This document shows positions 234 to 34,300 of a DNA stretch of 64,000 nt, in pieces. Each line of letters starts with the position of its first letter. Within the stretch, counting starts at the first letter, position 1. The notes beneath the pieces are model-generated. The model saw only the letters and a list, made by a program, of their open reading frames with translations. It was not told where the DNA came from and made no database searches. Origin of the DNA: Euglena gracilis (taxonomy: Eukaryota). The stretch spans positions 20,570,642 through 20,634,641 of the forward strand of contig CP154954.1 in NCBI GenBank assembly GCA_039621445.1, in the 5' to 3' direction. The translations under genes were made by a program, and so were the position numbers.

Positions 234-3200
234 ATGGCTTGCGTGGCCCTGCAGGAGGCGGTGGACGCCATCCACCGGTTCGGGGCCCTGCAGCAGGGCC
301 GGCTGGACCGGCTGGCGGCCGCCAGCACGACCGGCGGCTTCCCCTCCGTCCCCCCTCCGCTGCCGTCCCCCGGCCAGGGGAGGGGCCGGACGGAATGGGA
401 ATCCCGGCAACCCTGGGGGCCAGGGCAGAACAGGAATCGGCCAAACAGTGGTGGGTGGGGGGGGGGTCGACCCCCCCCCCAGCCCATATTTCCGGAGCAC
501 CAATTTTCGACCCAATTTTTTTTCCCGGCGTCAAAGGCGCCAGGGAAAATTTGTTTGAAAAATCCGTGAAAATGCTGTGGTGGGTGGCCCCCCATCTCCC
601 GGGGGGGGGTCGACCGACAGAAGCCAAAGTGCATCTAAGGGGGGGGTCGACCGCGGTAATTGGGGAGTTGACCCCCCTACCCCAGTATCCTGGTGGGCGG
701 TTGGGTTACTTGACCATAGCCCCAAACTGTGAGTTTTGCTGGCGACCACCGCCCGCCAGCAAAACTCACAGTTGTGTGACGTTGCCCAAGCCGAATCATG
801 AAACTAATTCAGAATTCGGAAATATTGCAAAGCAGGATGACTCGAGCGGGGACGGGAGTCACGGCAAATGTATGTCGGGCAGGGTGTGCCGAATGTGGAG
901 GGTCCGACCTCACACATCACCTCATCAATATTTAGGTTAAAATTTTCGTTTGGTATTGAAGGAATGATCTGCCCCCCCCACCCTCCAAACAGAGTGGGAG
1001 AGGGCGGTGGAATTAAAGGTCTAGGAGCGTAGACTCATTTGACACCTGTGTTACCCTTCCCCAGGGGTGGATGGTGGGTGTTCTAGAGTGGGTGAGTTTT
1101 GCCCGGCTGAAGCCGGCTGAAGGCTGATGATTTTTTTTCCAGGGGTTCTGGCTGATTTTGGGTGGGTTTTGGGTGGGTGGGTGGGTGGGTCGACCTGGTC
1201 ATGCGAGGGCCGATTTTTTTTTAAAGAAGTGGGTGGCAGGTTTGGGCCCTGGGAAAAGTGCCCCACGCCCCAGGGATCACTAGCTATTCCATGCCTGAGA
1301 GACGACGTTGCGGACGGAACACCCCTGGCAAGCCCCAATGCGGTGTGAATGGACTCCCCCCAATGCATAGTTGTGTAAAACGTTTCGCCATGCGAAACGT
1401 AACTGCTGGCCTGGCTTGTCGCAGTGCCAGTCGGCAGTGCCACAGCCCCGGCCCATTTGTCAAACCGCCGCCCTCCCACTCCCTGGCCCCGCTCGGCACC
1501 GGTCGGAGGAGCAAGCCCGGGCAGCGTGGGACAAGGCGGAGTGGGAGCGGGCGGAGAAGGACCGGCCGGGCCAGCCTGGGCTGCCACCTGGATCCCCAAG
1601 CGCGGAGGTGGTGTCTGAGTGCCTTGCGAGGGGGGGGGGTCAGAAACCTGGACCACCAATCGGTGGTGGTTTGGGCACCCCACCTCTCTCCTGCACTTGT
1701 GGTCAGCCCCCGAGTTCATCATTTTTGTGATTTGGATAATCCCAAAATCGCCTAAAAAAACCCCAAAAAATCAACTAACCCCCCCAACAGGGCCCACGTT
1801 TCCCGATATTTTTTTCGGGATCCGATAAATTCAAGATCGTCGACAAGGCCCAAATGGGCCGATGTCCAATACAACGATTCTTGCTCTGGGGACGATGGGT
1901 CGCTGCCAGCCACCGCTGACGCCGACATTTTTTTTTGGGAGGCTTTGTTCTAAAAAAAACGCCCCAGCCGGCGGGCCACAGGACCGTGGTGCGGGCGCCG
2001 GCCTTCTCCCGCGACAGTCAGCGGCTGGCCAGTGGTGACGGTGGGGTCAGAGCGTGCGGTTCTGGGAGGCTGCTGGGGATGGGCTGCCACAAGCAGGCCC
2101 CCGCCTGGGTTTTGGGTGGGGGAGTGTGGGTGGGTCCGAACCCTGGTCATGAGGAAGCGGGGCGGCCCGATTTTTTTTTAAAGAAAGTGGGTCCTGGGAT
2201 TCAGCTAGCTATTCCAGCCTGAGAGGACGCGTGGCGGACGGAATAGCAGGCCCCCGCCTCGGCTAAGCGTAAGGAAATCTCCCGAAATCCGATCCTCCTG
2301 AAATTGAACCCTGGACAGCGGCTGAAAGCAAGGAAGGGCGTTTTGGGGGAAGAGAGTCGGCCCCTGGACGGGCGGGGAACTGAGGCGGGCGGTTGACCAG
2401 GTGAGGCCGGGTGGCCCCTCCTTCCAGTGGAAGGGGCCAACATCGGAACACAGGAGACCTGCCTCGGTCCGGGTTGGAGGAGGGGGGGGTGCCCCCCACC
2501 CCCCCACTCCTGGACCAGAGGGGGGGTCCGGACCACCCCCCACCTGCCAAGGGGTCTGTTCCGACCCTGGGGGGGGGTACCCGTGACCCCCCAAAAGGTC
2601 AGTTTTTTCCTTCCAGCGCTTTGCGCCGAATTTTTTGAGCCTTTTTGACAATGTTTGCCCCCAAAAGTGCCCGAAATGACATTTTTGACACTTTTGGCTA
2701 TTTTGGGGGGGGTCAAACTTTGATTTGGCCATTTTGGGTCAAACCGCATCGCGCTGGCCGAATTTCGGTCACCCAGACCACGCCACTGCACAGGAGGGGG
2801 GGAGTCCCCTGCCTGACTGGGGGGGGGTCTGACGACCCCCTCCCGCCCTTTATTGAACCTTGGTGCTGTCGCGACTCTTCACGAAACCCACACAGGCGGC
2901 CCGCAGGGGACGGGACCGGGAGGCGGCGGAGAGGCTGCGGCTGCAGCGCGAGGAGGAGGACCGGGCGGCGCGGGAGCGGGCAGGATGGTCGTTGTGTGGG
3001 AGGAGGGCACGTCTGGAGTGGCAATGGCTGTGTTGGTTCCCTGCACTAACCCCCCCCCCACTGATAAAGTCCCGGGGGTTTATAGGATCTGGTTTGGCTG
3101 GTCAGCCGAAGGGGGGGTTTATAAGTCAAGGAATGTTGGTGAAAATCTGACCCCTCAAGGTGACCTAAAACCTCCCAAATTTGGCAATTTTCGGCAAATT

Positions 3201-6200
3201 TGGCCAAAAATGGCATTTTTGATGATGGTCGGTCTCAAAAAAAATTCCAAAAAAGATAGTTTTTGGGTGGATTGCGGCCGAAAAAATTGTCCCCAGCGGT
3301 TTTCATTTTACTTCTCCAGGGGTGGTTATAAGTCAAGGTTTGGTTGGTCAGCCCAAGGGGAGGGTTACAAGTTGGGGGGGGGTTCACTATTTACCCAGTG
3401 AACCGTTCATTAACACTCAGCACTCTGGGGCTGCCCGAGACCAATTACCCTTCTTAGTGCGGTGTGTATTATGTTCCCGGGTGCACTCCCACTCTGGTGT
3501 GCTTCCTCAAAGGACACCGGCCTTTCTGAAGCTGTGAACGCCGGATGCGGGAGGAACGTGAACAAGGGCAGGCCTCTTTTGAGGCTGGTGCGCAAATAGG
3601 TGGATTTGGGTGTTATTGATTTGGTGATTTGAGTTCTGAATGTCGTTCTTTTTTTGGGTTATTCTCTTTTTTTCTTTGCTCTTTGTGATGGACCACAGTG
3701 CATTTTTTTGGGTTGGGGACTCGAGAAAGAGCTGCCTGTGTCCGGGGGGGATATACAAGTTGGATATTTTGCATTTGCATTTTCTTGTATGATGCAAAGC
3801 TTTTTCTTGCAGTTTTTTTCCATGATGAAGAATTTGCAAAAACTCGCATTGTTTGCATTTTTTCATACTTTGCTTTCCAATTTTAGGGGCAATTGCGCAC
3901 ACCAATTGCTCTTCTGCCAGGATAATGGAGGTTGCACACCGCACATTTTGGCCACAAGTGGATGCCACTGGGCAAACCAAGCATGATATTTTTCAAGTTT
4001 GGACCACGTTTTTGATGTATGTCCTGGTAGAAATAAGTGCAAATGATTGTTCAAAGCATGCACCATGCTTCAGAGCAAATGATGTTGCAAAGCAAAAATT
4101 TACACGGAAGCGGCTTTTAATAAAATCATTTTTTTTTCAAAATATTTATTTTGTAAATCTCAAGTCCTCTCCACCGCCCTTGGACACCACAATTTTCTGG
4201 GGTCCCCGCTGGGAATCCGGAAAAGAAGCCAGGGCTGCACTTTTTACTTCAGGGGGAGCCAACCAGCAAGAGAATTGAACAACCCCCAAAAACGCCCGCC
4301 CCGGCGGGAGGAGGCGCGGAAGGCGCAGGAGGACAAGGAGAACCGCCTGAAGCGGCAGCACGAGGAGCCGGAGCGGCGGCTGAGCAAGAAGCAGCGGCAG
4401 CCCCCGCCGCCGTGCTCCCCGCGCTCCGCGGCGGCGCATTACGACATGCCGCCGCCCATAGATTCGTGTGTGACTTTGGGCCCGAGGGCGGGGGGGGGGG
4501 TCGTGCCTGCCTCCCCAGGCACTCCAGGGCACTCCGACACCCCCGCTCCCCTCCCGAGGTTGGTCAAATTCAGCCTGCGTTGGGGTGGGGGGGGTGGGGG
4601 CTTGGCCCATGGATGAAGTTCCCCTCTCCCCCCGAGGTCGCCACGTATCTATGCCGCCGCCCTCCTCCCTGAAGGCAGTGCCCCTCGGCAACATGACAAA
4701 CACCCAGGGCCTGTGGGTCGTCCATCCAGGTGCAGTGCGGAGGACCACAAATCTGCAAATGTTCCTTGTGAGTCAAGTGCCGTGCACGGCGTGGCAAAAC
4801 CATCGGTGTGGGTGTGGGTGTGGGTATGGGTGCCGCAAGAGACCCAATTATGAGGTCCGCAAAAGAAATACCCACACCCACACCCATACCCATACCTGTG
4901 CCGAGGCAGAGCTCATCACCAGCTGAGGGCACCGTCGGCTTCCAACTCTGCCTGGGGCCTCGGGGCCCTGCCTCCGCCCCGGCTCAGTCCCCCCGGCAGA
5001 CGCCCAAGTCCCCCCGGTCCCACGAGCTGCACGCCCACCCGAAGCCCGCCCCCGCCCAGCACGCAGCCCCGGCCCCCGCCAAGCCGCAGCCGCAGCCGGC
5101 GGTCGCCCCCGCGCCGCTTGTGGCCGCGTCGCCCGCCGACGACCCCAGCCGGAAGGCCCAGCCCCCCGCCCAGGGTGTGAAGTGACCATTGGTTTTGTAC
5201 AGGGGGGAGGGCCGGGATTTTTTTTTGTTCCGCGGCGCGTTGTGCTGGAATGTAAATGTTTTCATCATCTGGGTTTGCCAATTTGGTGAAAGAATCACAT
5301 TCCCGCGCGTTGCGCCGGCTTTTTTCCCCCAGCAGGAGGGACCCCCCTGGGCGTGAAGGGGGTTAGGGACCCCCTTAGTTGCACTAAGGCTTCTTGTCTG
5401 TTTATGGCCGGCGCTAAATTCGCTTCTGGCCCAGTTTGCTGTGTGGTGAGTGGCCAGGGACCCCTTACACCAGTCCTCTTTTGTTGCTCCCCCTGGCCGG
5501 GTGAGTAACTCTGGTGTAATTCCGGCGCTGTAGGGACATACACTCACCTTGTGTGGTTGGTGTGCTTCCCGTGGGTGGGTCTACACCCTTGCGCCCCAGT
5601 TCTGCTCTTGCCTCCTGCCCTCTTCCCACTTTTCTGTGTGGGGGATGCATGGCGCAGGCACAACGCCATGACTTGAAAAACTCCAATGTGGCCTCACAGT
5701 CCCGCGGCTTAGGTAAACCCGGGTCACCAAGTCTCGGCCTTAGGGCGGGTGGCGGGTGGGTAGTGTGCTGCTGGGCACCAGTAGTTCCTTACATACTGGT
5801 ACCTGCGCTCCATGCCTGTCCGGGGTTGGTTTGGGTGGTCCACTGCCTCGCGGGTGGGTCCCTCTCTGCTGGCTTCCCCTTTGGGGGTGGGTTGCTGGGG
5901 GGTGCGCTCCTACTAAGCCGGCGAGCCCGAAGGCCCCCCTGCCATGTCCCCCGGGCGGTCGCACGAAGCGCCATGCCCCCCTACAGAGGCATCGGAGGGT
6001 TAGGGACCCCCCCTCATCGCTGCTCACTTCAGACCCTGGCCCGCCTGGGCCCGGTCACAGGCCATCCACGACGCCCTCGCCGCCCAGAACCGCAGCCATG
6101 TGAATGCTTACGCCTCTTCTCCCTTTCGCATGCTTTGGTAGCTGGCAACTTTCCCCCCCCCCCAGGCGCCTGGCAAAGGGACTCGTTCAATTCATTTCTT

Positions 6201-16328: not shown

Positions 16329-19300
16329 ATGGACGCCTCCATCCTGCACCTGCTGGCCCAGGCTCTACAGGGGCCGGCTGGTGGCCAGACTCAGCGCTTC
16401 ACGGGAAAGTGGACCTTCATCGACCGGCTGAAGAGCGTGGACTGCAACCAGGATGACACCGTGGCATGGTGGGCAACCACCGGCGGCCTCCCCTTTGATG
16501 CCTGTCCCTGCGGCAGTCTCAACCATCCATTTGTCTGCAATGAACACCAAATGGTGCCGCACAATGAATTCCAATTCGACACACCACACCACACCACACC
16601 GTATACTACTGTGATGTTGCTTGTGTTGACCAGTTTGCCATTCCCAACTTCAAATATCCCTCCCCAAAAAGAGGACCAGAAAGTCTCAGAACCACAAACA
16701 AAATTTTAATGTATTTCACCTTGGATGTACGTTTTTATTTCACCCCAAGAAGTGAGTTGCTAAGTGATCAAGATAAGGCATTTGGCCACCTGGTCACATG
16801 GTAGAATCTGTCACATGGTAGAATTTGTCACATAGTAGAATTTGTCACATGGTGGAATTTGTCACATGGCAGAATTTGCCACACGGTAGAATTTGTCACA
16901 TGGTAGAATTTGCCACATGGTAGAATTTGCCACATGGTGGAATTTTGTTGTCGAATTCACCCCCTCCACCCCCCGGTGCCAACCTGGAGGAAGGCCGGTT
17001 GGTGTTTTCGCCCGAAAGTTCCTACTGAAAAGGCAAAGAAAAGGCAAATGCCGGTGCTTGGCGCCGTGTCAAGTCCTGGGACTCCACCACCCCGACGCGG
17101 CAGGTCTTCCCGGCCAGCGGGCAGTACTCCATCCAGTGGGAGGTCCGCCAGATGGACTACGACCGGAGGTTCGCGGTCGGGGTGCTGCCCGAAAGCACGG
17201 CCCTGGACATGTGTGGCTTCCAGGGCAATGGGAAGAGTTGCCTCCTGTTGGCTTTCCATTGGTTCCCAGAATGCCAGGCGGATTCAACCAGTTCCAAGTG
17301 TGGGGTTCAGGAACACCCTGGACGATCAAGGTTTGTATCTCAGTTTTTGCCACAGAAATTTCACTCCAGAAATTTTTTGCTAGGCTAAAGTTTGGGGCAA
17401 ACCATCTCTGCTGTAACTATTGAGGTGGTTTCCCCTCCCCGGGCCCAGCGTTGATCTCGAAAGCCTTATGGGTGGACCTTCTTCCGCCTGCCAGAGGTCT
17501 TCAACCTTTTCCACAATTTTTCGAAAAGTTTCTTCAAAAAAACTACTTTTACTTGAATATTGTTAATATCATATACTGATTTTGTTAAAATCAGTATATG
17601 ATATTAACAATATTCATGCCAATTTTGGAGGCGATTCCTCAAATGATGCCTGAAGATTCAAGTTTCGTTGTTGGTGCCCCAATTTGATTCTAATATCACA
17701 ATGTTTACGGACAAAAAATCGACCCAGCGCCATCCTCTGTTGTTTTAATTTCAGCACCCTAATCCCACCCCCCACCAAATAGGACCCCGCATCAACCTTT
17801 GTGGTTGCTGATAATCCCAAGACGGTGATTTTTGGGGGGTGGGAGGGTCCACTCTTTGGATTTTTGCTGAAACTTCAGACAAAAAACATCTTCCCACAGG
17901 AGAGATCTCTCCAATTTCTTTTTTGGTTTTTTTTGCTTCCAAATATTGGTCAACCTTTGACCGATATCGCCGACTTTCATCTCCAATTTCAAACTCGGCC
18001 ATTTTTTAAGCCCCCTCCCCCTATGTCAGCTGCTGCTGCCGCCTCGTCCACCCGGCATTGCTCTGCCCCCAACAATTTCCTTGGCGCTGAGAGCCTGTCG
18101 GGTAGCATCGGTTTCGTGTTCACAAACGAGGGCGGGCAGTTCATGACCGCTGGCGAGGCTGAGACGTGATGTAAGCCATTCTCTGCTGGTCTGTGAAATT
18201 GCATAGAGCTGACTGGATTGAGTGACATGGTATGGTCCAAGACCTACACCCTGAGACGACTACACCCTTTCACCACTCTTTACCGAAATGCACCCTGACT
18301 TCTCAGAATCAATCTGCTTTTATTATTATTATTGAGCATTCCGTAAAGCCCTACCCAGGACGCCCCCAAAGATCGGGGTTTTTAGCACATTTGGCATTTT
18401 TGGGGGCAAGGAATGTGTCCAAAGCATTTCTGGGTCGATTACCCTCCCAAATAGATTTGCCCGCCTGCAAAGTTAGTGGACTGATCATTTTAGTCCCAAC
18501 CCCATGCAAAGTTATTTGGGCAGTACCAAAAACCATCGATGGACCGATTCTCCACGTTTCCTAAAACAAGTTTTTTGTTGTTGTCATATGGTGTTCATAA
18601 ATGTTTGTACATATGTGCTTCTATTCATCAAGTCATAGATTATTTGGCATTTCAGATCATTTTTTGTGCTTGCTACCTCCTCGTTTAAAAAAGATGCATC
18701 ATTTTTCACGATTGAAAAAGGGGGGCAAAGGTATTTGGACCGATCATCTTTGGCAGAATTCTCAAACACGCAAAGCTTTAGGGCACTGCAACGTCATTTG
18801 GCGGGAGTTTAGGCCATGCTGCTGTGGGGGAGGGGCTCCCCCCTTGACTGGTGGGGTCCAGACCTTGAACCCCCATCCACCAGAGTCTCGGCCTCTCTGG
18901 GGCAAGTCCTTCGGGCCCAAGGGCCCAGCAGTGAAGGCAGGCAGCACGGTGTCGGTGTCCGTGGCCAACGGCAGTCTGACCGTGACCGTGGATGAGGGCG
19001 TCGCTCAATGCGGGAGTCGGGGGCCTGTCACCCGAGGGCAGGGGGTGCAGTCAGCCAGCAGCCGTTTTTCAAGCCTTCGACCCCCCTCCCATCCACGAGG
19101 TTCTTTTTTTTGTTGTTTTCCGGCCGCCTGACGGTGTGCCAGGCAGCTGAACATCAGTGGATCATTTCCCTGCAGAGTGCACACATATGAACCACAAACC
19201 GGCAAACATGGGTCGGGGAACAGGGCTGCAACACGGCTGGCCAGGGCCCATGCTGGGTCAGCCTGCAGCCGGCCCCAACATTCCAGCCCCTGAGCTGCCC

Positions 19301-22300
19301 CCCCCCCCCCACTGAGCGCATGCCCTGCCGTGGACGGCAAGCCACTCCCGCCGGTGACAGGCAAGGCCAGGGCTGCGTGGCGGGGTTGCTTCCCCGTTGG
19401 GTTACACAGTACGCTCTCCAGTTTTCCGGACATGTTAACCGATCCCTGTTCTCCTGCCCCCCCCTTTCTGTGGGTGACCAATCTCTCAACGGAGCCCAAC
19501 CAGGGCCATGATTATTTAGACACACCACAGTGATTCATCCGAAGGCAGAAAACAAAGGGCAGCAGTTTTTTCAAATATCTGTTTTCCCCAGGTTTTTTTT
19601 GGTGATTTGTTGACCGACGTTTTTTTTTTAGGCCTAATTTCAAAATCTGTTCCATCCCACACAGCCTGCCAAAAAGGGATGGCTTTCGGGCCCAGCTTGC
19701 CCCCTGGTCGCGACCCAGCGCCATCCTCAGTTAATTTAACATAAGCCGGACCCCGGGACATCTTTTACATTTGTTGATAATCCCAAGGCGATGATGATCT
19801 TTTGTTGGGAGGGTCCACCCTTTGGATTTTTGCTGAAACTTCAGACAAAAAACATCTTCCCACAGGAGAGTCCAAGGCTAGGCTTTTCACTGGGGTCGTT
19901 TTCCTCTGAAAATGACTTCTTTCCGCAAAGGGGAAGAGTGGAAGGCAAGGAGGCTTTCCTCAAAGGGGAAGGCCAGTGGTACTTATTGCTTTCCTCCTTG
20001 CCCTTTGCTCTCTGCTACCCTCTGTAATCTGTCCATCATATCATCCTCGGCATCCCATCCCTTTCTGTGGTTTATCGGCCTTTGAGGTCCGTTAATTAGA
20101 GAAGAGGTTGCAGATGTGGGGCCGACTGGCACGCTGCACAATAACCCCCCCTCACTTATAAACCCCCGGGGTTTATAGGATCCGGTTTGGTTGGTCGGCC
20201 GAAGGGGGGTTTATAGGTGGGGGGGGGGTTATACGTGGGGGGTGGGGTTTATGTTACCGTCCTAGAGGCCAGGAGGATGATAAGCACTAGCAAAAAGTGC
20301 ATGCCTGCAACCTGCTGAAAGCTGGATTCCTGTGGTGTCTGCAACAAGGTGGGCCACAAAAACATGTTTGAACGGATGGGGCACCTAAGAGGACTGAAGA
20401 CGCAAGATTTTAAGATACTTTTTTTCCACAGTCCCAAAATGGCCGAAGAAATGGCCAATGCTGACCCCAACAATTCCAGAAAATGACTAGCAACTGGCCA
20501 AAGCTGACAAAATGGACAAAAACTTGACATCCTTCCAGAAGTGATTTTTTTAAAAAATCTGAAAAAAGCCTGCAAATTTTGCACAACTCAAAAAATGATC
20601 CTTCAAAATTCCACAGTATATTGCAAAATTGTTCTGCATTGTAAGTGTGTGGATGGATGTTTTCTGGAAAGGAAAAAATAAAATGACAAAACCGGACACT
20701 CGCTGAAAATCCGCCGAAAACGCTGAAACAAAATAGGTGGCGGGTTGGGCAGATTTGTGTGAACGCCGACCACAAGTCCAACTCGTCTCTGCTAGTGCGA
20801 AGCCCTGCTTGAGATGGCTGGAAGCTATCGCTTCGCTGTCTCCCTCTGTGCCAAAGACCAAAAGGTGGCAAACAATGTCCGGCCAGATCTGGTGTGACAC
20901 AAATGCCTGGATCAGGCTTCTTGTTCAAGGAAGCTCGCCCCCCCCCCCCCCAGGTGGGTTCTGTGGGCAGGCAGGGGAGGTTGGGCATTTTCGCCCCCCC
21001 CCCCCTCGGGGGTTGGGTTTTGGGGTGGGTAGTGCTATGGTGCACCCCGTGGCGCCGAAGGTGCCGGGGCTCAAAAATGGCCCTTTTCGTGGGATAATTG
21101 GCAGGCACTGGTGGCTGAAACCGACCCCCCCCCCTCCTGGGGGGGGTGGCTTCTATGGGCAGGCACCCCAGAGCACAAGGCACCCTCCCCCGAGGTTGGT
21201 AAAAAAGAAGCCTTATCTGGACACTTTCCAGCCGTTTTTTTCTTCCCCACCAACTGTTCCAAGGGTTCCACCATGGGGGCAGTGGTATCCTCTGGTGCCA
21301 AATTTTGCCTCCTTTCTGCCATTATCCCTCCTGTCTCCCAAAATGTCACTTAAAATGCGAAAGCCAAAGTTTTGTGTCATGATGGATGGGCCACGCTCCC
21401 GGGGATATCCTGACCCCAACCTGGTGCAACGTTCAACCCCACACCTACCCCAACGCCCCTAAACAGGAACAGGAAACTGATCCGGGAGGTCAAAACCATC
21501 GGGGGGGGGGCAGCCGGCCGGCCGTTGCGGGCAATCGCGGGGGGCCAGGGGGAGACGGGAGGCAGCCTGGAAGGGGCCGCACTGGTGGGCTGTAAGGTCA
21601 CAGCGAAGGCGGAGGCGGAGGTGTTTGCGGCGGTCTGCGCATTGCAGCCGGGCATCGGCCCGGCGGACCTGCAGAAGCTGCGGCTGTTCTCGGGGGCGGT
21701 GGCCAGCCAGGGGTTTATTCCGCTGGTTGCTCGCCGAGGGGTTGCGTTGGGAAAAGGCAAGGATGAGGATCATACGAGCTCTTTTTCATGTTGCCGAATA
21801 ACATGCATTTCCGTTCGAGGGCTGCCATTCCCTTTGCCTGGATTGCCTGTTCCAAGGGTTGTATTTCTCCAGTGTACTCGCAGATTCCTGAAATATTCAT
21901 CAGGGTCCGGTATGCTTCTCTCAGCTCTCCAGTAAGTTCAAAAAAATGTTGGCCTGCCGGGTGCTTGGGGGTTTGACAGCAGTGCATTGCATACGAAGAA
22001 CCCCTGGTCCTGGCAAGACTGGGGTGATCCGGAGGTTCGACGACTCTGACAACGCAAAGGCCCAAACTGCTCTCGTTGGTGGGTTGAGGTGGCTGATGGT
22101 TGTGTGCTGCACTGTGGCGGCAGGGAATTTCTTAAGCTGCACCCCAGCCTACCCCCCCCCCCTCTCTCTGGGTGGTCCAGCCTGCCAGCACCTTGTTTTC
22201 AGCCAACAGCCCCCAGCCAGCCTGCTTTCTTTCTCCCATCCCTCCCCCAGGTTATAAAGTTTTTTCAGGCAGGAAAAGCCAGGCTGGACCGAAAAATCCT

Positions 22301-25300
22301 GTGCACAAAGCGCCGCAGTTTCTCAAGACAGACAGAAGGGGTTTTGGGTTTTTTTTATTGGTCTGAATGTGTTGTTTTATTACTTCCCCATGGGGAAGGG
22401 TGATACCTGGGGCAGGCGCTTGCTGGGCTTATCCCCCTGGGTCGTTAAGAAAATCCTCGGCCAGCTCTGTTATTTCCCAATGCCAAAACCTTGTCATGGA
22501 TGCTTGCAGCCGCTCACTTCATCACGCGCGCGCATGTGTGTGTGTGTTGTGTGTGTGTGTGCGTGTGTGTCTGTGTGTGTGTGTTGTGTGTGTGTGTGTG
22601 TGTGTGTGTCTGTGTGTTGTGTGTGTGTTGTGTGTGTGTTGTGTGTGTGAGTGAGAGAGAGAGAGAGAGAGTGTGTGTGTGTGTGTGAGTGAGTGAGTAA
22701 GTGTGTGTGTGTGTGTGTGTGTGTGCAGCATGCTTGCGTGGCGAAGCGTGGGCCTTGCCCCACGTACCTGGTGGACATGGGATCACACGAGCAACCGTGG
22801 CTGCTCAGAAACTGCTTCACATTGTGTTCGGGTGACCAGGGCTCATTCCTTACCAAACTTTGTTGCCCCATGGCGAGTGGTCACCAGGGTTCGAAGTATG
22901 TATGTATGGATGTATGTATGTATGTATGTATGTATGTATGTATGTATGTATGTATGTATGTATGTATGTATGTATGTATGTATGTATGTATGTATGTATG
23001 TATGTATGTATGTATGTATGTATGTATGTATGTATGTATGTATGTATGTATGTATGTATGTATGTATGTATGTATGTATGTATGTATGTATGTATGTGTG
23101 TGTGTATCATACATATAGTATAGATATATATATATATATATACAGTATATAAACATGTATACATATATATATACACACACACACATATATATATATATTA
23201 TATATATATATGTTGCAGTTGAATTCTATTTGGCCCCAGGCCCAGTTGAAGTTCCAGAGAGTCCAAAATTTTTTTGTGTTATTGATGGAGCAGGGTTAGG
23301 GTTAAGAGTTCGGCTTTTCTTTTCTTTTGGCCTAACTTGTACATCCAACACGCGTCCATAAGTCCATAAGGCCGAACTCCTAACCCTGGCCTTTTTCCAT
23401 CCATAACCCAATATTTTTTTTTGCGGACCTCCCTGGAGCTTCTGCTTGCCCCCCCGGGGGGGGGGCAAACAGAAGCTTGCTGCCAGATATTTATGCATGT
23501 CTACACATATATTGCATCTGGAACGTTGATCTTTCGTTGCAAAGATGTTTGTCAGGCCGTGCCCCGGGGAGTGCCTGGGTCAAGGCCTCTCCCCTCTTCA
23601 CATGGGGAGGGCACTGGCGCTCGGGCTGAGTTGATTCTCTGGGACAGGCAGATGCCCTCCGTTATTGGGGCGATCCACTGAATTTTCGACCCCATAAGTG
23701 ACCCCTGAAGGGGTGCCCGCCCAGTCCCCCCTGCCTCCCAGGGTTCAGCGAATGGGTGGCTGCTGAACTCCCCGTCCTTCAAAACACCTTAGAGGGGATG
23801 GTCAGCATTGGATGATCCCTGTCGACCAATCGGACATGCCCGAAAGGGCATCCGCTTCAGGAGTTTGTCACGGCCACCAACTCTTTCAACTGCGATGCCT
23901 GCCACCGTGGGTTCCCGACTGGCACGCGTATGTTTGGCTGCCGCCAGTGCAATTACGACGAGTGTGAGGTCTGCATTGTCGGCAGCAGCCAGGGCAAATC
24001 CCTGGCTTTCCGAGCATGTAATGATTTTGTGTCCGAAGTTGGAGGTGGGAGTCAGGGAATTTCTTAAGCCAGACCCCGCCCCACCCCCCATCTTTGGGCC
24101 ATGGCGTGATGACGCTGTTCCCGATTTAGGAGATATGAAGGGGGAAATGGTTCTGAATGTCTTTCCAAGTCTAGCTTTGTTGTCTAATATTCTATCTCTG
24201 TGCCTTCGACCAAGGAAGGCAACCCTGAAGGGCTTGCTTGCTGCTGGCAGAGGCGCAATAAACTGGCTGGCACGGCGGGGGGGGGGGCAAATCACGGGGG
24301 GCAAATCACGTCAGTCGAAAATCAATTGTGGGTGTCGACCCAGCCACCCACAGGCACTACCCCAGGCGAGGTCGGTCGCGCCTTGAACTTCAACTTCAGT
24401 GCCGGCCAGTCTCAGGCTGTTGGGGGCATTGCTCAACCAGGGGAGGCGTGGCATACGGCAGGGCAGCCTTGTGGGCCCAGCAAGGTGTGCTTGAAGGGGC
24501 ACCCACTGATCGGGTTCAACACTGGCCAGCCTGCGGCTTGCGTGACCCAACGGGGTCCACGCACCCTCATTCTGTGACGTGCGGAGTGGGGGTTGCATTT
24601 GATGGTTTTGGCAGCCCTGTCAATTGTCCGCAGCCAATTGGATGTTATAATCTTTTCAATAGGTCATTTCAAGTGCGATTAACGGGGACCCTGGCGTTGC
24701 ACCGCCGCGCTGGGCGGCTGCGGGCCGTGGTCTGGTGTGTATCCTTGGCTCTTGCCCGAGGGGGCTGACTGATCGCACGAGATTCACGTTCGACCATCTC
24801 CAGCATTCCCCGAGGGGCCGTCCCGGAAGTGGCAAGGTGCTTAGACATTCTGTTCCACAGGTGAACCACAGAAAGAACACGGGAATCTTTCCACACAATC
24901 TGGTGCTTCCCGAAAGCTGTGTTATGTGGGACCAGGGGTTTTTTTTTAGTCGTGGATTCCCAGGGGGTGAGCCGACCAGGCCGAGCCCCCCCCCCCCCGG
25001 CCCCCCAGGGGGTGGGATGTACTTTTGATAAAGGGGTTATTTTTAGCATTTTCGCGATTTTTGGCCATTTTCAGGGGAAAATGGGTGGGTCCCCCGCCCC
25101 CCCCCCCCCCCAGGAGGGAGTGGGTGGGTTGGGAGGACCACCCCGGTCAAGCCGTCGCCCTGCCGCCGAAACTTCGACGTGGTCGTGTAGTGTCTGCGGG
25201 CAGAAGGTCCCGAAGGGGACGCGCCTCTTCGGCTGCCGGCCATGCGACTATGACGAGTGCGAGGCGTGCGTCCGCAAGGGCCTCGCGGCGCACCAGCCGG

Positions 25301-28300
25301 CCGCCGAGACCGCCTGGACCAGGGCCGTGCGGGGAACGGCGCGCCAGACGAACGGCGCGCCAGTCCACGGTTTGCAGTCCTGCAGGTATGAGGCGGGTAT
25401 GGTAAATTTTTTGAAAAAGGTGCTATTTTTTAAACATTTTCCGCGATTTTTGGCCATTTTCGGGGAAAGGTGGGTGGGTCCCCCTGTGTGCACTGTGGCT
25501 GTTTTTTTGTGGTGCCTTTTATCCCTTCTTCTGGCCTGGCGCTGTTGTTCGCCTCTGGCTCTTTTTGTCTGTGTGCGTGGAGGTGGCCGGAGCCTGGCGG
25601 GACTTACCTTGTTTACAACGCCGGCCACCAAGCGCCCGCCAGGCACATACTCCACTTTAGTTAGGGGGGGTCTCCTTCACCGTGACAACGCACTGGTTAC
25701 TCCTGTCCACGACCCCAGCAGGTGTGGTTCCCAACTCCCCCCAGGGGGTGGGTGGGTGGGGGGAACCCCCCTCCCCCCGGTCATAAGAAAACCCCTGCAC
25801 CAGAGTCGCACCCCGCCCACACAAGCGGTCACCGTTGCACTCCCGGAGATCACAAACGACCGAGCCCGCCCACGAACCTCGCCGGGCCGTGTCCGTGCCC
25901 GGCGAACTGCCGTGGCCCGCGCTGCCCTGCCCCCGGCGTTCCTGGACCGCCTGAAGAGCGTCAACTGCCCCCAGGGGAAGGCAGCGCGGCGTTCCCCATC
26001 CCTGTGCATGGCCGTTTTGCTGATTTGTCGGTTGAAGTCGCCCCCAACTGGCGACTGACCTTTTTTTTTCGGAGCGACTGGTTTCGGCTACGGCCCCGAA
26101 ACCTCCAGGCAGAAGTGATCCACCGAGTGCTGAGAGTTTGTTTATTTTGACCCGTTTTAGGTTTAGCTGCCACTCCCCAAGGGCAGGGGCCAAAGTGGCT
26201 GAATGGTTTCAGTGCCTGCACCACCTTCCTAACACATAACTCCACACTATCGCCATGTGCCCCACACACCTCCAGCCGGCCCCTGCCCGCGGGCAAGGGG
26301 GGCGAGAGGCGTGGTGTGTCACCCAGCGCGACTCCACCACCGCGGTTAAGCAGACGTTTGAGGCCGCCCAACGGGCATCTTTCCGGGCCGAAGGGCTCCC
26401 GGCACCCCGGTCCCGTCCCCGGGAGGGGGTGCCTGCTTGGAGGGGAGGGTGTGGGATTTCGTAGTAGATCTAGGAGCAGGTGTGGCACATTTGGCCAGAA
26501 GTACCTGTGTTCTTCAAAGGGACAGCTGGAAAGCCCTAAATGGCCATTTCAGACAATTCGACTCGACTGGGCCTGTTGGAGGTAGTCCCTGCCTGTCCAG
26601 GTACTCCACGAGTCCCCCCCCCCCCAGGGTTTGGTCAATACTCCACGAGTCCCCCCCCCCAGGGTTTGGTCAATTCAGCCTCGCCCCAGTAGCTTTCCCT
26701 TCACCCGCTTTCCCTCCCCCATCCCTCAACGGGTCCAGACCACCCCCCACCTGCCAAAGGGGGGGGTGTAGGTCGACAACCCAATCCGTTGGCCAACTGT
26801 CCAAGTCTATAGGTCGAGACGGGGTTGGGGGGGGGCAGTTGGTAGTCGGCTGATCAGTGGGCCAACTACCCCTCTAATGTCCCAATGGGTCAAATTCGCC
26901 AACTTTTAAGCCCCAAGGCACTCTGCCGCCTCCCCGACCCCTTCCCACAGGCCGCCCGGACTCCCTCGCGGGCGGTGCAGGTCGTGGCGATGAACCACGA
27001 CCGGCCCCTGGCGGTGGGCGTGTTCCCCGCGGCCACCGACCTGGATGAGTGCGGGGACCATGGGCCCCCCGCCCCCCCCCCCCCATGGATTTTGGGTTCA
27101 TTTTTCAAAAAAATTTCAAAAAATTTTTTCCCGGCCAAAATCCCCGTTTTCCCAAATTTGGTGAAAATGCTGTGGTGGGTGGGAGGGGGGGTGACCACCC
27201 CCTTCCCATTCTGCCCCCGCCCCCACATGGGCCCAGTGTGCTCGAACCGCCATAGTGGACCCGGATACTGCGAGCCCGAACTTCTGGCTTTTTCGGAAAG
27301 CAATTTGGAAAGGGGGCAGGTGGTTCTTGGCAGACCCAGCCCGGGACAAATTTCAAGGCATGGCGGATCGGCCTGCCGGCAGCCACTCCAGGCACCCAAG
27401 ACCCTCCACCCCCCCCCCCGGGGGGGCGGTTGAATTCAGCCCAGTCCAGCTCCCGCCTCGGGGGGGGGGGGGGGGGGTTCCCCGTGAAACGATGCTCTGA
27501 CCATTCTTGGAAGCAGCTGGAACAGGTGCCAATGAGGGGAAGAAGAGGAAGGGGTTCGAATGTCTGGTGTGTCTGCTATCCAAGTGGAACCCAGGGGGAG
27601 ATATTGATATCGCAATTTTCCCGCAATTTCCTCGTACCATGCATTCGATTTGCATTTCAAAAAGGAATGTGCAATGATTTCTGGCAATTCCTTGAATGGT
27701 CCACCAGGGAACCCAATTGTTTTCTGCTTGCTATTTTGTCACAAATTTTCCAAAATTGGCAAATTTTCCGAGTTTTGGCAAAATATGTGGGTTCTCATCA
27801 ATCGAATTCCATATTTTTGGAATCAATATGTTCCCTAAATGGCTTCTTGGAAGATGAAAAAATAAAGGGATTAATATTTTCTTAGTTCTCAATAAAATAT
27901 GTACCGCATTATTCTGGACTATATTGCTATTACCTGCAACCATTATGTATTATATTAAGGTATATGTATTATATTAAGGTATATTATATATGTATTATAT
28001 TAAGGTCATTACTATAATATACTTATTATTCATTACTATTATTGTTATAAACTGCATCATGTTATTTCCCCTCATTTTCTGGAAGGCCTCTGATATCAAC
28101 CTTCCCCCTGTCTAACCAAAGAATGGGGTTGCTGGGATCAGAACTCTGCTTGTTTTGGTTGGCGGTTGACATTAGGGATAAAATTTGCAGGTTGCTGATT
28201 TTTTTTGACTTTTTGACCTTCCTGCCCCTCTATATTACCCCATGCACATCACCCAGGGTGGGGGTGGGGGTGGTGGCACTTTTTGGGTGAAACCAACACT

Positions 28301-31300
28301 TTTTTCCAAGCCTGCTGGCTCGCCTGATTGAGCGACAGATGTTGGGGTCTTCAACCTTTCCTGCCAGCGACTGGGTTGCTCGTTCGGACGCCCATGCTGT
28401 CGATTATTACCTGGGCGAAAGAGGGTTGTCCGGCAGCATTGGGTTGGTGTTCTTCAACAAGAAATGCCAACTATATGCTTCTGCACGGGGTCCCACCATT
28501 CCCAAGTCCTGTTTTCCTTTTGGTAAACGTTGCACGTGTATTCATAAAAAATAAACTTTCAAAAAAAATGGTCTCAATGTTCTTTTGTTAGTTTTTTTTT
28601 GCGATTTTTGATTAGACTCATAATATCTACCATCTGCAGGTTCGTTTGGGACGCTGTGGGAGGCGGGAGATCCGGACCGAGCCACCAACTCCGGGTTGGG
28701 GGGCGACGGGACCCATTTGGGGCTGCGGTTATTCGTTTGGTGGATGGGCGACATTCTCAAAACATTTCAGTGCCTTGGAATAGGTGGGGACATTTGCTTT
28801 ATCTGGGCCACCTTCTTTTCTGTACATATTTTCTTTCTCTCAACGTCCACTACAGGGTTTCCACAGCACCCCTTTCCCTTTTCCTCTAAGAAATCCTGAT
28901 GATAAGGAATTCTGTTTTTTTTTGTATCCTAGTTTTGCAGCTAGTTTATCGCTCCTGAGTGAGACTTCACACACAACAAGACGGGGTTATGGTGTACGGT
29001 CAGATATTTTTTTAAAAGTGTTTTCTAAAGAATAATTTGTTTGATAATGTAGGGGGGGTCCACCCCCCCCCTCCACGGGGGTTGGAGGTCAGGCCAAGCG
29101 GGTTCCCCCCCCCGGAAGTTTTTTTTCGCACCGAAAATTTTGGAACCCCCTTCGAAAGGAACAACTATAATGAAACATGGGAGCTGGAAGGGAAATGCAG
29201 GGCCGCGTGAGTTTTTGTCAAAAATTTGCGCACCCCACTCCTCATGTAGCCATTGGATAGTACCTGAAAAAATTGTTCAACTTTTTCTGCAGGGCAGAAA
29301 CTTTTTTTTTCCACTCTTTTAACACTTTGCCTCGATTTGTTTGGCCAACTCCCCCTCTTTGAAAAAAGGAGTGGTTTTATATGTGTCTTCTTTGTCAATT
29401 GGGAAAACCATTGGAAAAAGACCGTAGCTTGTTAAAAGTGAGAAAAAAATTGTTACGAGTTCCCATGAAACGTTGTGTTGAATTTTCCCATCCTCACCCC
29501 CCCCCTTTGTCGAACAACCGGGCTTGTCCAAAGACCAAATGTGTTCTTTTCGGATATGCTTTTGGTTTCGTGAGGATGGGAAGAAAGTGTGTGAATTAAT
29601 TTCTTATCTTTTTTTTTAATTTTTTTCACTGCTGCATTGCTTTTGTATTTGTTGGGATGGTCACCATAAAATGGATGAGAATGCCAAAATGCGCTAGAAA
29701 GGCCAATGTCCCCCCCAGGCATTTGCTTAAGGGATTGCAGTACCCCCCCGGGGGGGGGGCTGGACTGCAGCTAGTCCAAATTTGGCTAGTGGGTTTTCTA
29801 GCAGACCCCCCCCCGGGGGGGTCTGCTAGCAGGGCTAGCTAGTGGAAAAAAAATTTTTGGGACCCCCAAAAATGGCCAAAAATGCCCGTTTTTGGCCATT
29901 TTTGGGAATTTTTGGAACAAAATCAGCCAAAAACCTGTTAAAAATTTTTTTCCAGTCCGGGGGACCCCCGGACCCCCCCCCCGGGGGGAGGGGGGTCTAG
30001 CTAGTCCACTTTTTCCAGTGTCTAGCCGATTGGCTAGCCAGTACCCCCCCCCCCGGGGTCCTTAAGCAAATGCCTGGTCCCCCCTCAAAAATGGTTATAA
30101 ATACCCCAAAAATGGCTAAAATTGATTTCAGCGTGCAAAAAGGTGCGAAAGGTCTGAAAATTGCGAGAAGTTGGCCCAAAAAAAGTGGCCAGAAATGAAC
30201 AAAAGTGCCAAAAAATATACGAAAAGTGGCCCAAAAAATGGCCAAATGTGCCCCAAAATGTGCCAATTTTAGGTCATAATTTCCCTGCCGTGCCAAAGGA
30301 GTTTTTCCTACTACACCGAAGGAATTTTCCGTTGTGCGGTTGCTTGGCGGGTGGGAGGTGTCCACCTCCCCCTGAACAAACCGTGATCAGAGGTCATTGA
30401 AAATCAATAGCCCCCAAGAGAAGCGGCTGCTCGAAGCACGGGGTTCAATGAAACGCACCCCCACGTTTGGCGGGATTCCCGAGGATTTCGAAAGAGATGG
30501 GCCCAGGGGCATATATCAAAAGTCGCCCCAAAAATGCCAAAATTAGCCAACACAGTCGTAGATCCCCTCCTGCGGCATTTTTTTTTGCCAACTTGGGGTC
30601 CCTCCCTGTACAATGACCGCCCCCCTCCTCTGTGATCCAAACGTCAATGGTTGTTGGACAATGGCGGGGTGGGGTAACTTTTTCAAATCCCAAACCAAAT
30701 TGTCTCATCATTTTCTCCTGTCATTTTAACTTTGTTGTTGCAGTTCCATCAGCGAATGCTGCCCCTTCCCAAAGGGCTGCTGCAGCAGTTTCAGCCAACA
30801 GTTTTCAGTAGCCTGGGACTTCAGTGGCCGGAACTTTTTTTTGGCCCACCAGTATGCGACTGTGCAAACATGGACAACCGTACGTTACCGTTTGCAGGTG
30901 GCATCCCCACCTGCCCCTTCCAGGAGTTTGCCGCCTGGGGAACTTGTCACCACAGGGCCAGCACCGGCCGACCTGTACATCGGAACGCCTGCCCCACACA
31001 GCCTCCCGGGGGGTCCATCCAAATTTGAACGTTGTGTACAGGCTGAATTTCAATGGTGCGGACCCTGCCTTAGGGGGGGGGGCTGCCTGCCTGAGGAGGC
31101 ACTCCAAGGCACCCAGATCCGACCCTGGGTAGGGCACACGGCCAAAAGTGCCTGGGCACAAGGCAAAGGCTCTCCTGGCGCCGAAGGCGCCGTAACCCAG
31201 AACAGGCCATTTTGAGGCATTTTTTTTTGGCCTACGACCAGGCAGCACCGACCCCCCCCCCCAGGGGGTGTAGTGCCTGCCTGCCCGGGCACCCCAGGGG

Positions 31301-34300
31301 CCCTCCGAGACCCCCCCCCCCGGGTTGGTCTACCTCAGCCTGATCGTGTAGGCTGGGGGTCGCTCTTTCCGGGGCCCCGCCGGCAACGACCCCATCGGGG
31401 CCCCCAGGGGCACCGTGGCAGCGGGGGACGTCGTGGAGGTGACGGTGGACTGCGGCACGGTGGCGTTCGCCGTCAACGGCCAGCGGCACGGCCCTACGGC
31501 GCGGGCGGCCGGGGGCCAGTGGCGCTTTGCGGCGTCGCTGTGCGGGCTGGGCCAGAAGGTGAAGGCCACCGCCCTCCCCATCCGCCTGGGGCAGGCCTGC
31601 CGTTCTTCTCCCGGGATCTCTAAAATCACGATTTGGACCAGGGGATTTCTTAAGCTGGAGGGAACCCCATCCCCGGGAGGAGGGTCCAGCCAGCCAGCAG
31701 CCCAAATCGGCGCTGGGAGCCCCCCCCCCCCTTCCCTGGGGTTGAGTGAAATAAAGTTGGATCCAGCCTGGCCGGAGGCCGGGCTAGCCGGCCGAAGGCC
31801 GGACCAGCTAGCCGCAGGCTGGCCAGCGAACTGGGCTGCCCAGCTCACCTATCCCTGCATTTTTTCTCTCATCACAGCCTCGCCTTAAATGCCTGGAGCA
31901 AATGTCTGGCACACGGAGGCAAAATTGTTTTTCCGAAATTGTTTCTCATCGACACAGCCCAGCACAGCCCCCTCCAGCCCCGGACCCCCCCCCCCCATTC
32001 CCCCGGGGGTCCAGCCAGCAGCTCGTTTCCTGCCAGCAGCCTTTTTTCTAGCCGGAGGCTGGACCCCCCCCCCCCGGGCCGGGGGTCCTTAAGAAATCCC
32101 CTGGTTTGAATTTTGTTGTGTCACCCAGATGTCCCTTTTTTGTTTTTGTTTTGCTACTTTTTACCTCGCATTTTCGACCTGTGCGAATTCTGTGGACACA
32201 ATCAGCAGGACTTCCATCAGCACAAGATTTCTTTTCGCATTTTTTTGTGGATATTTTATCATGTTCCAACATCCTGTGCTACTGAAATATCTGTGTTGAG
32301 TCAAATTCAAGTTAAAATCTCCGGGAAATTCAACTCCTGCTTTTTGATTTTGAAATCTCCGGGAAGGTTCAAAATCAAAAGCAGGAGTTTTTATTTTTTG
32401 AAAGGAAAAAAATTAACCTATGGGAAAATGCCACTTGAGTCTAGAGGCAAAAAGGTTTGTTGACAAGCTACCAACACAACGAGCAACAGATTGATTGAAG
32501 TCAGAGGGACACAAAAAATAACAACATGACGCGGATCCCTTTTGAACGTCTCTTGGTAGCAAGCTTTAAGGAATATAAGTGCTATGGGTATTTTCATACC
32601 CCCAAGGTAGCCTGTATTCGAGACATGGCACGAACCCGGGACCCCTACCCCTACCCCCCCCTACCAGGTTTTGAATAGTGCTGAGCTCTTAATAAGCGCG
32701 CCCCCACCCCTTCATTGACCCCCCATATATACCAGCCACTCCGTGGAGCTCTTTGGACTGAAATGCAAGGGTTTTGTGCCCGAAACGGGAGGCCAAGGGG
32801 TCAAAAAACGCTCATTTTTGGCTCAAAAACAGGGTTTCCGGGTGCGGGAGAGCAAAAAACATCGTTTTGGGCAAAAATTTTTTTCGATTTTTTTTGGACT
32901 TTTTTGACCCGGGTTTGGCCCGAAGTCAATGGGTCGGCAGCCCAAAACAGGGCGCCGGCGGGTCGAAAAACGCTCGTTTTCGGCTCAAAAACAGTTTTTC
33001 CGGGTCCGGGAGGCCAAAAAACATCGTTTCGGGCAATTTTTTTTTCGATTTTTTTCGACTTTTTTTGGCCGAAAACGGCTAAGTCGAACAGAGTGAAAAG
33101 TGTAGAAAATGGCCTAAATTGGCCGAAAAACGGCCGTATCTCGGGCTAGGCGGTGAGCTGCGGGGAAACCAAAATCCCAGTAGATAGAGCGTTCCAAGGG
33201 CTTCAATTTAGGTCTCCAGACATTTCCTTTGATTTTGCATCATTTTTGAGAAATTGTGAAAACATCGATTTTTTGACCCCCCACCCCCCCGAAAACGGCT
33301 AAGTCGAACAGTGGGAAAAGTGTACAAAATGGCCATCTGCGCCGAAAACGGCCGTATCTCGGGCTAGGCGGGGAGTTGCGGGGAAATCAAAATACCAGTA
33401 GATGGGACCTTCCAAGGGCTTCAAATTAGGTCTCCAGACATTTCCTTTGATTTTGCTTCATTTTGGAGATATTTTGAAAGTTGACATTTTTTGGCCGAAA
33501 TGGCAGAGTCTAAAGGGGGGGAGGGGGCTTATCCAGGGGGGGGGGGGGCGGGCCAATCCAACCCAGTTTGGACCCCTTCGCGCGTGAATAACTCGCGCCT
33601 GGCGGGGAGTTGGGGATCAACCCAGGTGATTCGGAAACTAGGAATCGCAGTCGACTGAAATTTTTTTTTTCGGGAACGGGGCCGGGATCATGGTGATAAT
33701 CCGCCAGTTCCCGAGGTGGCCCCGAGGGGGGGGACGGGGGGTTCAGGGGGGTTTTCCCCCAGGGGTAAGCTTCGCTCTTACCCATAAAGGGATAAGGGCT
33801 CAGCGACCCCCCCAACCCCCCCCCCCACCCTCACCCGGGTTCGTGCCATATGTGCTGTATTCAGGAAGTTTGGTTTCAACTCCAATGAAAAATTGTTTGT
33901 CAGGCAGCATTCAGAGGTAAGTTACTTTCCCACCTCACTGACCACTGAAGTCTCATCATCTTTTATATCTTTTTTTTCCCATTTCTTCGTGTGTCTTTTC
34001 GTTCTACACGTTCCGAAATCTGGAAATTGGAGGGACACCTTCAAAAAACCCCAAAAGAAGGTTTTTTTTTTAACAATCTCGACCCCTTTTTTTATTTTTT
34101 CGGCAAACCCGGCTGTGTCTGCCCACCCTAACTTTTTTTCCAGTAAACCCCTGGGGCAGCTGGTAGGAAAAAGGTGCTGGCTGCCCCTCCGGCGTTTGAT
34201 ATCCTCTGGTGTTGCTGAGTCCCTACATTGATATGAATGGGATCAGGCTTCTGCTTAAGGGATTGCAGTACCCCCCTGGGGGGGGCTGGACTGCAGCTAG

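Follow-up and report, generated by a model that had tools for sequence, protein, structure and literature searches.

The origin of the nonconventional (NC) introns of euglenids is still debated: insertion of a MITE (miniature inverted-repeat transposable element) and repair of a DNA break have both been published, and young introns alone keep the scar of their origin. The question is raised again by a segment of 342 nt (18991-19332) in a stretch of 64,000 nucleotides from Euglena gracilis (assembly GCA_039621445.1, contig CP154954.1, positions 20,570,642 to 20,634,641 of the forward strand), which is called the window here and is numbered from its first letter. The segment lies in the first of two copies of a SPRY-like domain. 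Was it gained after the domain had been duplicated, and if so, what kind of DNA was inserted? It is excised from the RNA at a defined junction, has no GT-AG borders, pairs at its ends, is absent from the second domain copy and is flanked by a nearly intact direct repeat. We regard it as almost certainly an NC intron of the euglenid type, which was very likely gained after the duplication through an insertion that duplicated 8-9 bp. As for the nature of the insert, a mobile MITE is favoured over filler DNA, tentatively and at somewhat less than even chances. The locus adds a second, RNA-verified example to the one young NC intron that we have found described, gapC intron 4.

Excision of the intron and its architecture

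RNA and DNA runs were mapped on 17000-22400, namely X21 (RNA-seq, raw reads), X16 and X15 (small contig sets which behave as transcriptomes) and X1 (a DNA contig set). The contigs of X16 (2,079 nt) and X15 skip six segments (17216>18070, 18151>18901, 18985>19328, 19363>20812, 20866>21530 and 21704>22012), and the loose ends of the X16 contig place the end of the previous exon at 16470 and the start of the next exon at 22762. Three of the six joints, 18985>19328 among them, are supported in X21 by one read each, and none of the six is seen in the DNA run X1. The joint 18985>19328 is carried by one contig in X16 (depth 15.3) and by one in X15 (depth 129.6); it skips 342 nt (3 x 114) and can slide by 7 nt, the registers allowed by the RNA being 18986+k to 19327+k with k = 0-7. 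Over 18991-19171 the depth is 0 in X16 and 0.43 in X15 versus exon depths of 15.3 and 129.6, and retention of the intron in the RNA is negligible.

The removal of the 342 nt restores the SPRY-like frame (TVTV/DGKP) through the join ...ACCGTG/GACGGC..., exactly as the original prediction had expected, and the RNA of X16, X15 and X21 agrees on it. Once joined, the exons of 17066-22053 make up a single open frame, whose 208 aa have a SPRY-like appearance. On the DNA side, record 5 of X1 (18720-19111) crosses the border between exon and intron.

None of the 8 registers permitted by the flanking repeat has GT/GC..AG borders. The neighbouring introns are also devoid of them, with the exception of 19365-20812, which is readable as GC..AG at one slide position; this intron shows the CAG/CTG code at slide +1 and GC..AG at slide +2, and is thereby a 'hybrid', in principle removable by either system. 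What all eight introns of the transcript have in common, each in its best register, is a 3-nt spacer, a helix from +4 whose partner strand ends at -6, then 5 nt of spacer and a purine-initial exon.

The Euglena code was defined by the knock-in mutagenesis of Nomura et al. (2025) as 5'-N3-CDG...CH'G-N5-6/R, the slash marking the splice junction, and 61.2% of the E. agilis NC introns conform to its strict form (PMC12501133). According to the same work the pairing behind the motif is needed for NC splicing, short direct repeats flank 84.4% of all introns, and the spacers are free in the code, as synthetic introns without repeats are spliced. Excision as a circle, independent of the spliceosome and of U1, has been described for the E. 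gracilis tubA intron in the literature cited in PMC12501133 and in passages of PMC11282704.

Compared with the Euglena NC introns and their code (PMC12501133; Milanowski et al. 2014/2016), intron 18991-19332 has the same lack of GT-AG, the same helix, set in by 3 nt from the 5' end and by 5 nt from the 3' end, the same CTG at -8..-6 and purine-initial exon, and a repeat which makes the junction 'slidable'. Three of the eight introns of the gene fit the code exactly with CAG...CTG; the triplet pairs of the others are GAG...CTC, GAG...CTG (18991-19332), CAA...TTG (twice) and AAG...CTT. CTG is reached at -8..-6 in one register only, 18991-19332, which splits the 8-mer into 5+3 and lets the exon start with G19333; in this register the 3' side agrees with the strict code (CH'G at -8..-6, a spacer of 5-6 nt, a purine).

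Three points weigh against the assignment to this class. On the 5' side GAG is found at +4..+6 where the strict code has CDG, the first pair of the helix being a G.G mismatch; any single substitution in CAG or CTG abolished the splicing of the test intron (PMC12501133); and similar introns are carried by hemistasiid diplonemids (passages of PMC12621601). The intron is outside the strict-code subclass N3-CDG...CH'G-N5-6/R, and differs from its fellows also in its long helix and in a repeat far longer than the 0-5 nt of the other seven introns of the transcript. It is spliced efficiently despite GAG, for which the long helix (7 + 6 bp) probably compensates. Efficient removal with GAG at +4..+6 bears on the strictness of the published code, as a natural exception to the strict CAG rule.

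Could the segment be an ordinary spliceosomal intron with odd sites, or an artefact of assembly or alignment? The former could be upheld on the ground that the agent which removes NC introns has not been named and that a flexible spliceosome has been proposed for diplonemids (passages of PMC12621601). Nevertheless, the lack of GT/GC..AG in all 8 registers, the same junction in three runs, the DNA contig which crosses the border between exon and intron and the restored frame make both of them extremely improbable.

Direct repeat, paired ends and the age of the intron

The two flanking 8-mers, CCGTGGAT and CCGTGGAC, match at 7 of 8 positions at an offset of 342 nt and enclose a segment of 334 nt. 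The base after the repeat is identical as well (G18994 and G19336), hence the repeat is readable as 8/9. The X1 contig 18720-19111 has C at 18993 (depth 42.5 of 42.5, 1 contig), which makes the repeat 8/8, or 9/9 with the next base. In a fixed register at offset 342, a match of at least 7/8 occurs at 73 of 63,640 window positions (0.0011), and a binomial estimate is 0.00084 when the match rate per base is set at 0.281, the value found in 624 displaced control 8-mers. Flanks in a 5+3 register with a 7/8 repeat had been pointed out from the sequence in the first place, and this part holds, with a chance expectation of about 0.001. We infer that the repeat is a target-site duplication. A scan of the window at free length for a repeat of at least 7/8 together with a helix of at least 7 bp returned 8,326 matches, mostly of low complexity, and was put aside as uninformative.

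The imperfect inverted ends could also be confirmed, as a helix in which 18995-19001 pairs with 19320-19326 (7 bp from +5/-7, including one G.U) and, beyond the bulged C19319, 19002-19007 pairs with 19313-19318 (6 bp). Among segments of the length of the 342-nt intron, a run of at least 7 pairs at the position of this helix was found at 271 of 63,400 positions (0.43%). Both the minimum free energy fold and the centroid fold of 18976-19347 bring the two intron ends into pairing; the overall stability of this fold does not exceed that of shuffled sequences (z = -0.67; 25 of 100 shuffles fold as well). The original prediction had taken these ends, as a terminal inverted repeat, for a sign of a transposon. 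That every intron of the gene is of the euglenid NC type had escaped that prediction. Terminal pairing is required for NC excision whatever the origin of the DNA, and all eight introns of the transcript share the architecture, thus the inverted ends, though present, are not independent evidence of a transposon.

A local tblastn search places copy 2 of the domain at 26978-27061, 28408-28503 and 31403-31561. The last of these aligns with the spliced copy-1 protein at 40.7% over 54 aa with a single 1-aa gap elsewhere, and it is uninterrupted at the site in question, which corresponds to GTC/AAC at about 31474/31475; the absence of the intron from copy 2 is thereby borne out. Neither intron 18991-19332 nor its neighbour 19365-20812 has a counterpart in copy 2, where exon 31385-31588 runs through both sites. 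The residues of 22 of 53 aligned codons are identical in the two copies, and the third positions are identical in 24 of 53, versus 0.37 expected by chance. By this comparison the silent sites between the copies are near saturation, and the copies are old.

Two introns of copy 2, 27056-28401 (CAT...ATG) and 28483-31384 (CGG...CCG), were predicted from the frame, the alignment and the NC architecture. They would lie at the same codon boundaries as 17218-18070 and 18152-18900 of copy 1 (one behind ...CG, the other behind the 11th residue that follows F[T/F]N), and introns at identical positions in both copies predate the duplication. Shared old NC positions are worth recording in themselves, since NC positions have been described as turning over quickly between species.

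These older introns offer a calibration within the gene. When the 8-mers on either side of each intron are compared in the 5+3 register, the shared introns have 2/8 and 4/8 matches in copy 1 and 3/8 and 1/8 in copy 2, intron 19365-20812 has 2/8, and intron 18991-19332 has 7/8. Of every two bases paired off in its repeat, one lies in a spacer which is free in the code; an intron of the duplication's age should no longer have such a repeat. Because the repeat is nearly intact (7/8, and 8/8 in X1) despite the age of the copies, gain after the duplication is well supported, and the claim that the intron is younger than the domain duplication stands.

Two points count against a gain. The copy-2 junctions used in the calibration are themselves predicted, and copy 2 is also without the adjacent intron 19365-20812, for which reason a single loss over both sites is as parsimonious as two gains. 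The intron could thus be ancestral to the duplication and have been lost from copy 2 together with its neighbour, for example by cDNA recombination, its repeat being due to chance or selection. The two introns missing from copy 2 are separated by only 32 nt of exon, so one event of loss would explain both, and the other NC introns of the gene have been kept in both copies. What makes this course of events very unlikely is the repeat itself. With saturated silent sites an unconstrained 8-mer is expected to match at about 2/8, and a match of at least 7/8 would arise by chance in about 0.001 of cases; the published code leaves the spacers free (PMC12501133); and the shared old introns have repeats of 1-4/8. 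An ancestral intron would need a coincidence of 1 in 1,000 or some constraint on the repeat that is not known.

Among the remaining seven introns with RNA support, matches between the flanking 8-mers are in weak excess (22/56, P = 0.046). When the two predicted copy-2 introns are added, the matches of these nine introns cluster at 4 positions beside the junction. We do not claim decayed 8-bp duplications there, as matches near the junction look like a junction preference.

The best comparison is intron 4 of gapC in E. agilis ACOI 323, likewise an NC intron judged to be recent, with a direct repeat of eight nucleotides which is longer than those of older introns (passages of PMC4770533). The recency of the gapC intron follows there from its absence in other strains, whereas in the present case it is read from a paralogous domain that has diverged, from the state of the repeat and from a T/C polymorphism within it. 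The value of the present locus lies in the repeat of 8 (9) nt in the exact 5+3 register of the code, in the internal calibration by two older introns with decayed repeats in both domain copies, and in the polymorphism which makes the repeat perfect in another DNA run. The coordinates are collected in Table 1.

Table 1. Positions of the intron, its flanks and related features in the window
Feature	Position	Strand	Basis and remarks
Previous NC intron, GGC-GAG...CTC-TCTGG/G, 11-bp helix	18152..18900	+	RNA; position common to copy 2
Upstream exon, SPRY-like copy 1, ends ...ACC GTG	18901..18990	+	X16 record 17, piece 18901-18985; RNA end = 18985 plus 0-7 nt; open frame
Left direct-repeat copy, CCGTGGAT	18986..18993	+	Sequence; CCGTGGAC in DNA run X1, where 18993 is T>C
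Intron, 342 nt, GAT-GAG...CTG-CCGTG, then G-initial exon	18991..19332	+	RNA joint and register of the NC architecture
5' arm of terminal helix, AGGGCGT + CGCTCA	18995..19007	+	Pairing/folding; +4 (G18994) faces G19327, unpaired
Internal stretch resembling a short dispersed repeat around GCCAGCAGC	19041..19075	+	Only about 22-35 nt common to the intron
3' arm of terminal helix, TGAGCG, bulged C19319, ATGCCCT	19313..19326	+	Pairing/folding
CTG at -8..-6, 3' half of the Euglena CAG/CTG code, then 5-nt spacer CCGTG	19325..19327	+	Register analysis; code PMC12501133
Right direct-repeat copy, CCGTGGAC	19328..19335	+	Sequence
Micro-exon, 32 nt, between intron 18991-19332 and the next NC intron	19333..19364	+	Joints 18985>19328 and 19363>20812; open frame
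Next NC intron, GGC-CAG...CTG-CTTGA/G	19365..20812	+	RNA; not in copy 2; flanking 8-mers 2/8
Copy-2 exon, uninterrupted over the sites of both copy-1-only introns	31385..31588	+	Start from predicted intron 28483-31384

Candidate sources of the inserted DNA

The course of events that we propose starts with an insertion into ACC GTG GAC GGC after the duplication of the SPRY-like domain, by which 8 (possibly 9) bp of the target would have been duplicated. The favoured insert would be a short mobile element with inverted-repeat ends, brought in by a transposase which makes 8-bp staggered cuts. In the pre-mRNA the intron ends would pair (18995-19007 with 19313-19326), the NC-splicing machinery of the host would cut 3 nt upstream of the helix on the 5' side and, on the 3' side, 5 nt downstream of it, and ...ACCGTG would be joined to GACGGC... 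with the SPRY-like frame restored. In this way the RNA would lose the insert and exactly one copy of the duplication. By analogy with the Euglena literature, the intron would be released as a circle and no spliceosome would be involved.

Under this proposal the insert would be a member of a MITE family (non-autonomous, hAT- or Merlin-like, with 8-9-bp duplications) which transposed into the exon and was tolerated as a substrate of NC splicing, a reading that we hold provisionally and not quite at even odds. The repeat of 7/8 (8/9) in the window and of 8/8 (9/9) in X1, the presence of inverted ends and the code spacers of 3 and 5 nt, which sum to 8, all speak for it, as does an internal stretch of 22-35 nt akin to the dispersed repeat around GCCAGCAGC. 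The intron termini may be likened to the terminal consensus of hAT elements. Merlin families with 8-bp duplications are present in E. gracilis according to passages of PMC8101967, and a repeat of about 8 nt is also found on both sides of gapC intron 4, the only other young NC intron published (passages of PMC4770533). With the Merlin (and hAT and P) transposons treated in those passages of PMC8101967 the insert has in common a duplication length of 8-9 bp and terminal inverted repeats, imperfect ones in its case; unlike Merlin, it is without a terminal GG, and no transposase, family or second copy came to light in the window.

The search for relatives weighs against transposition. No further copy of 18986-19335 was found in the 64-kb window, where the only match consisted of poly-C and a 22-nt motif. 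Over 18991-19171, the first half of the intron, the X1 depth is 110.6 versus about 50 in the flanks, approximately twofold, while true repeats nearby reach 2,000 to 181,622; X1 contains no high-copy family at a likeness of at least 90%. Nor was an empty-site allele seen in X1, the one DNA run examined out of 14 listed. Moreover, the termini are imperfect, with GAG instead of CAG at the 5' end and without the terminal GG of Merlin, the requirement of splicing alone accounts for the inverted ends, and the matches which cluster by the junction in nine other introns have the look of a junction preference. From the initial claim of an intron gained by transposition after the duplication, it is the gain after the duplication which is upheld, while transposition is not demonstrated by copies in the window, high-copy depth or an empty site in X1. 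The X1 depth of 794 over 19172-19352 was rejected as a measure of copy number, since it is best explained by the poly-C run 19297-19311.

A possible second copy comes from X15, in which a contig of 180 nt corresponds to 19137-19309 (173 nt) apart from 10 differences (94%-similar) and could be either an allele or another copy of the element. Differences between the X1 contigs and the window occur at 19229, 19271 and 19321-19324. Within the intron the differences of X1 and X15 are denser than in the flanks (about 1% elsewhere), which could be allelic diversity or a second copy.

The GCCAGCAGC motif has 10 occurrences on both strands of the window versus 0.6 expected. The dispersed repeat around it was found at 7585, 19054, 31693, 32014 and 48575 on the plus strand and at 61318 and 24248 on the minus strand, in stretches of 45-80 nt at 78-96% identity. 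Two of its copies are situated a short way downstream of the copy-2 exon, and intron 18991-19332 contains a partial one.

Repair of a staggered double-strand break is the other published route. Overhangs of 8-9 nt would have been filled in, unrelated filler DNA captured, and the ends of the captured piece would have paired well enough for NC splicing. Milanowski et al. (2016) proposed break repair for the gapC intron with its 8-nt repeat (passages of PMC4770533), so the published proposal concerns an NC intron of the same kind of repeat. Filler DNA would suit an element which is apparently single-copy and whose inverted ends do not match perfectly, the key +4/-6 pair being mismatched. It is harder to reconcile with two independent young NC introns that both have repeats of about 8 nt, as this points to a fixed, transposase-like stagger; furthermore, a terminal helix of 13 bp would hardly arise by chance, given the frequency of runs of at least 7 pairs (0.43% of positions), unless selection filters the insertions. 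On this balance we consider capture of filler DNA rather unlikely, though a serious alternative.

A broader reading of the mobile MITE is conceivable, which we put forward as a doubtful one. The 3-nt and 5-nt spacers of the code might be the two halves of an 8-bp target-site duplication, and NC introns might be insertions of DNA transposons ended by CAG...CTG. It is a similarly speculative thought that these would belong to a superfamily with 8-bp duplications, and that the NC machinery arose, or was taken over from the transposon, for the removal of the element and one duplication copy from the RNA. If this unlikely scheme applied, the locus would be a snapshot taken soon after insertion, with the 8-mer split 5+3, perfect in X1, and the paralogous site empty. 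The correspondence of 3 + 5 with 8 was not found stated in the main texts examined, some of which were represented by passages, and a literature search aimed at it listed no paper on it.

The parallel with introners and other transposon-derived introns (Micromonas, dinoflagellates, Amoebophrya, Fritillaria; passages of PMC11282704) extends to inverted-repeat ends, insertion into an exon, duplication of the target and removal of one of its copies with the RNA. Introners differ in that they form multi-copy families and mostly provide GT/AG for the spliceosome, whereas here GT-AG is lacking and excision depends on end-to-end pairing. For NC introns a MITE-like origin was proposed in 2014 (passages of PMC3935182), repeated in a 2024 review which draws inverted repeats at +4/-6 with duplication-like repeats (passages of PMC11282704), and taken up again in a Discussion of 2025 (PMC12501133). 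The locus had been advanced as the best single link between MITEs and introns; the link is an older hypothesis, published in those passages of PMC3935182 and PMC11282704, and the locus does not on its own connect the repeats of the window with its introns. The high-copy repeats observed lie inside introns and do not form them. The locus is a well-documented further case of a known kind of event and not a new phenomenon.

The gene and repeats in its surroundings

The SPRY-like label is a putative one, resting on a sub-threshold Pfam match and on resemblance at the level of motifs. When single exons were compared with Pfam, the copy-2 exon 31385-31588 gave a SPRY match below threshold (E = 0.04, 14.4 bits versus a cut-off of 26.3), and six further exons gave nothing relevant, single exons being too short to score. 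With the copy-2 exon as a query no homologous longer proteins were found at E <= 0.001. A metagenome scan with a 57-aa query produced 597 pattern matches, 0 of them confirmed, and an exact exon stretch of 32 nt had 0 matches there; Rfam had 0 matches over the whole 64-kb window.

The strongest repeat nearby, 20145-20230, is situated in intron 19365-20812. It is short, of very high copy number, and has a palindromic core, TATAAACCCCC/GGGGTTTATA; the summed depth of X1 contigs reaches 181,622 in the bin 20077-20257 versus about 50 in unique sequence, loose ends occur at 20160/20163 and 20209, and the repeat is abundant in the RNA runs too. Further repeats are found at 20982-21343 in intron 20870-21532 (X1 depth 27,000-34,000) and at 18448-18809 in intron 18152-18900 (2,000-5,900). 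Many joints or replaced stretches of the DNA run fall on these two (e.g. 18522>18770 and 20977>21156), which suggests variable or nested copies, and both sit within introns without coinciding with the intron ends.

Two introns of the same gene share a direct repeat of 127 bp with 83% identity (17782-17904 and 19748-19870; X1 depth 520 and 113, respectively). Simple repeats are represented by a 17-nt unit repeated 9 times in tandem at 16793-16945 in intron 16471-17065, by (TG)98 at 22535-22725 in intron 22054-22761 and by (GTAT)53 at 22896-23107, just after the exon starting at 22762.

At the protein level, 38539-38583, 62445-62618 and 63420-63464 weakly match that part of the copy-1 protein which follows the SPRY-like domain (e.g. 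...GKTG.[IV]R.[FY]D.SDN). The window may accordingly hold more repeats of a larger module, possibly within one very long multi-domain gene.

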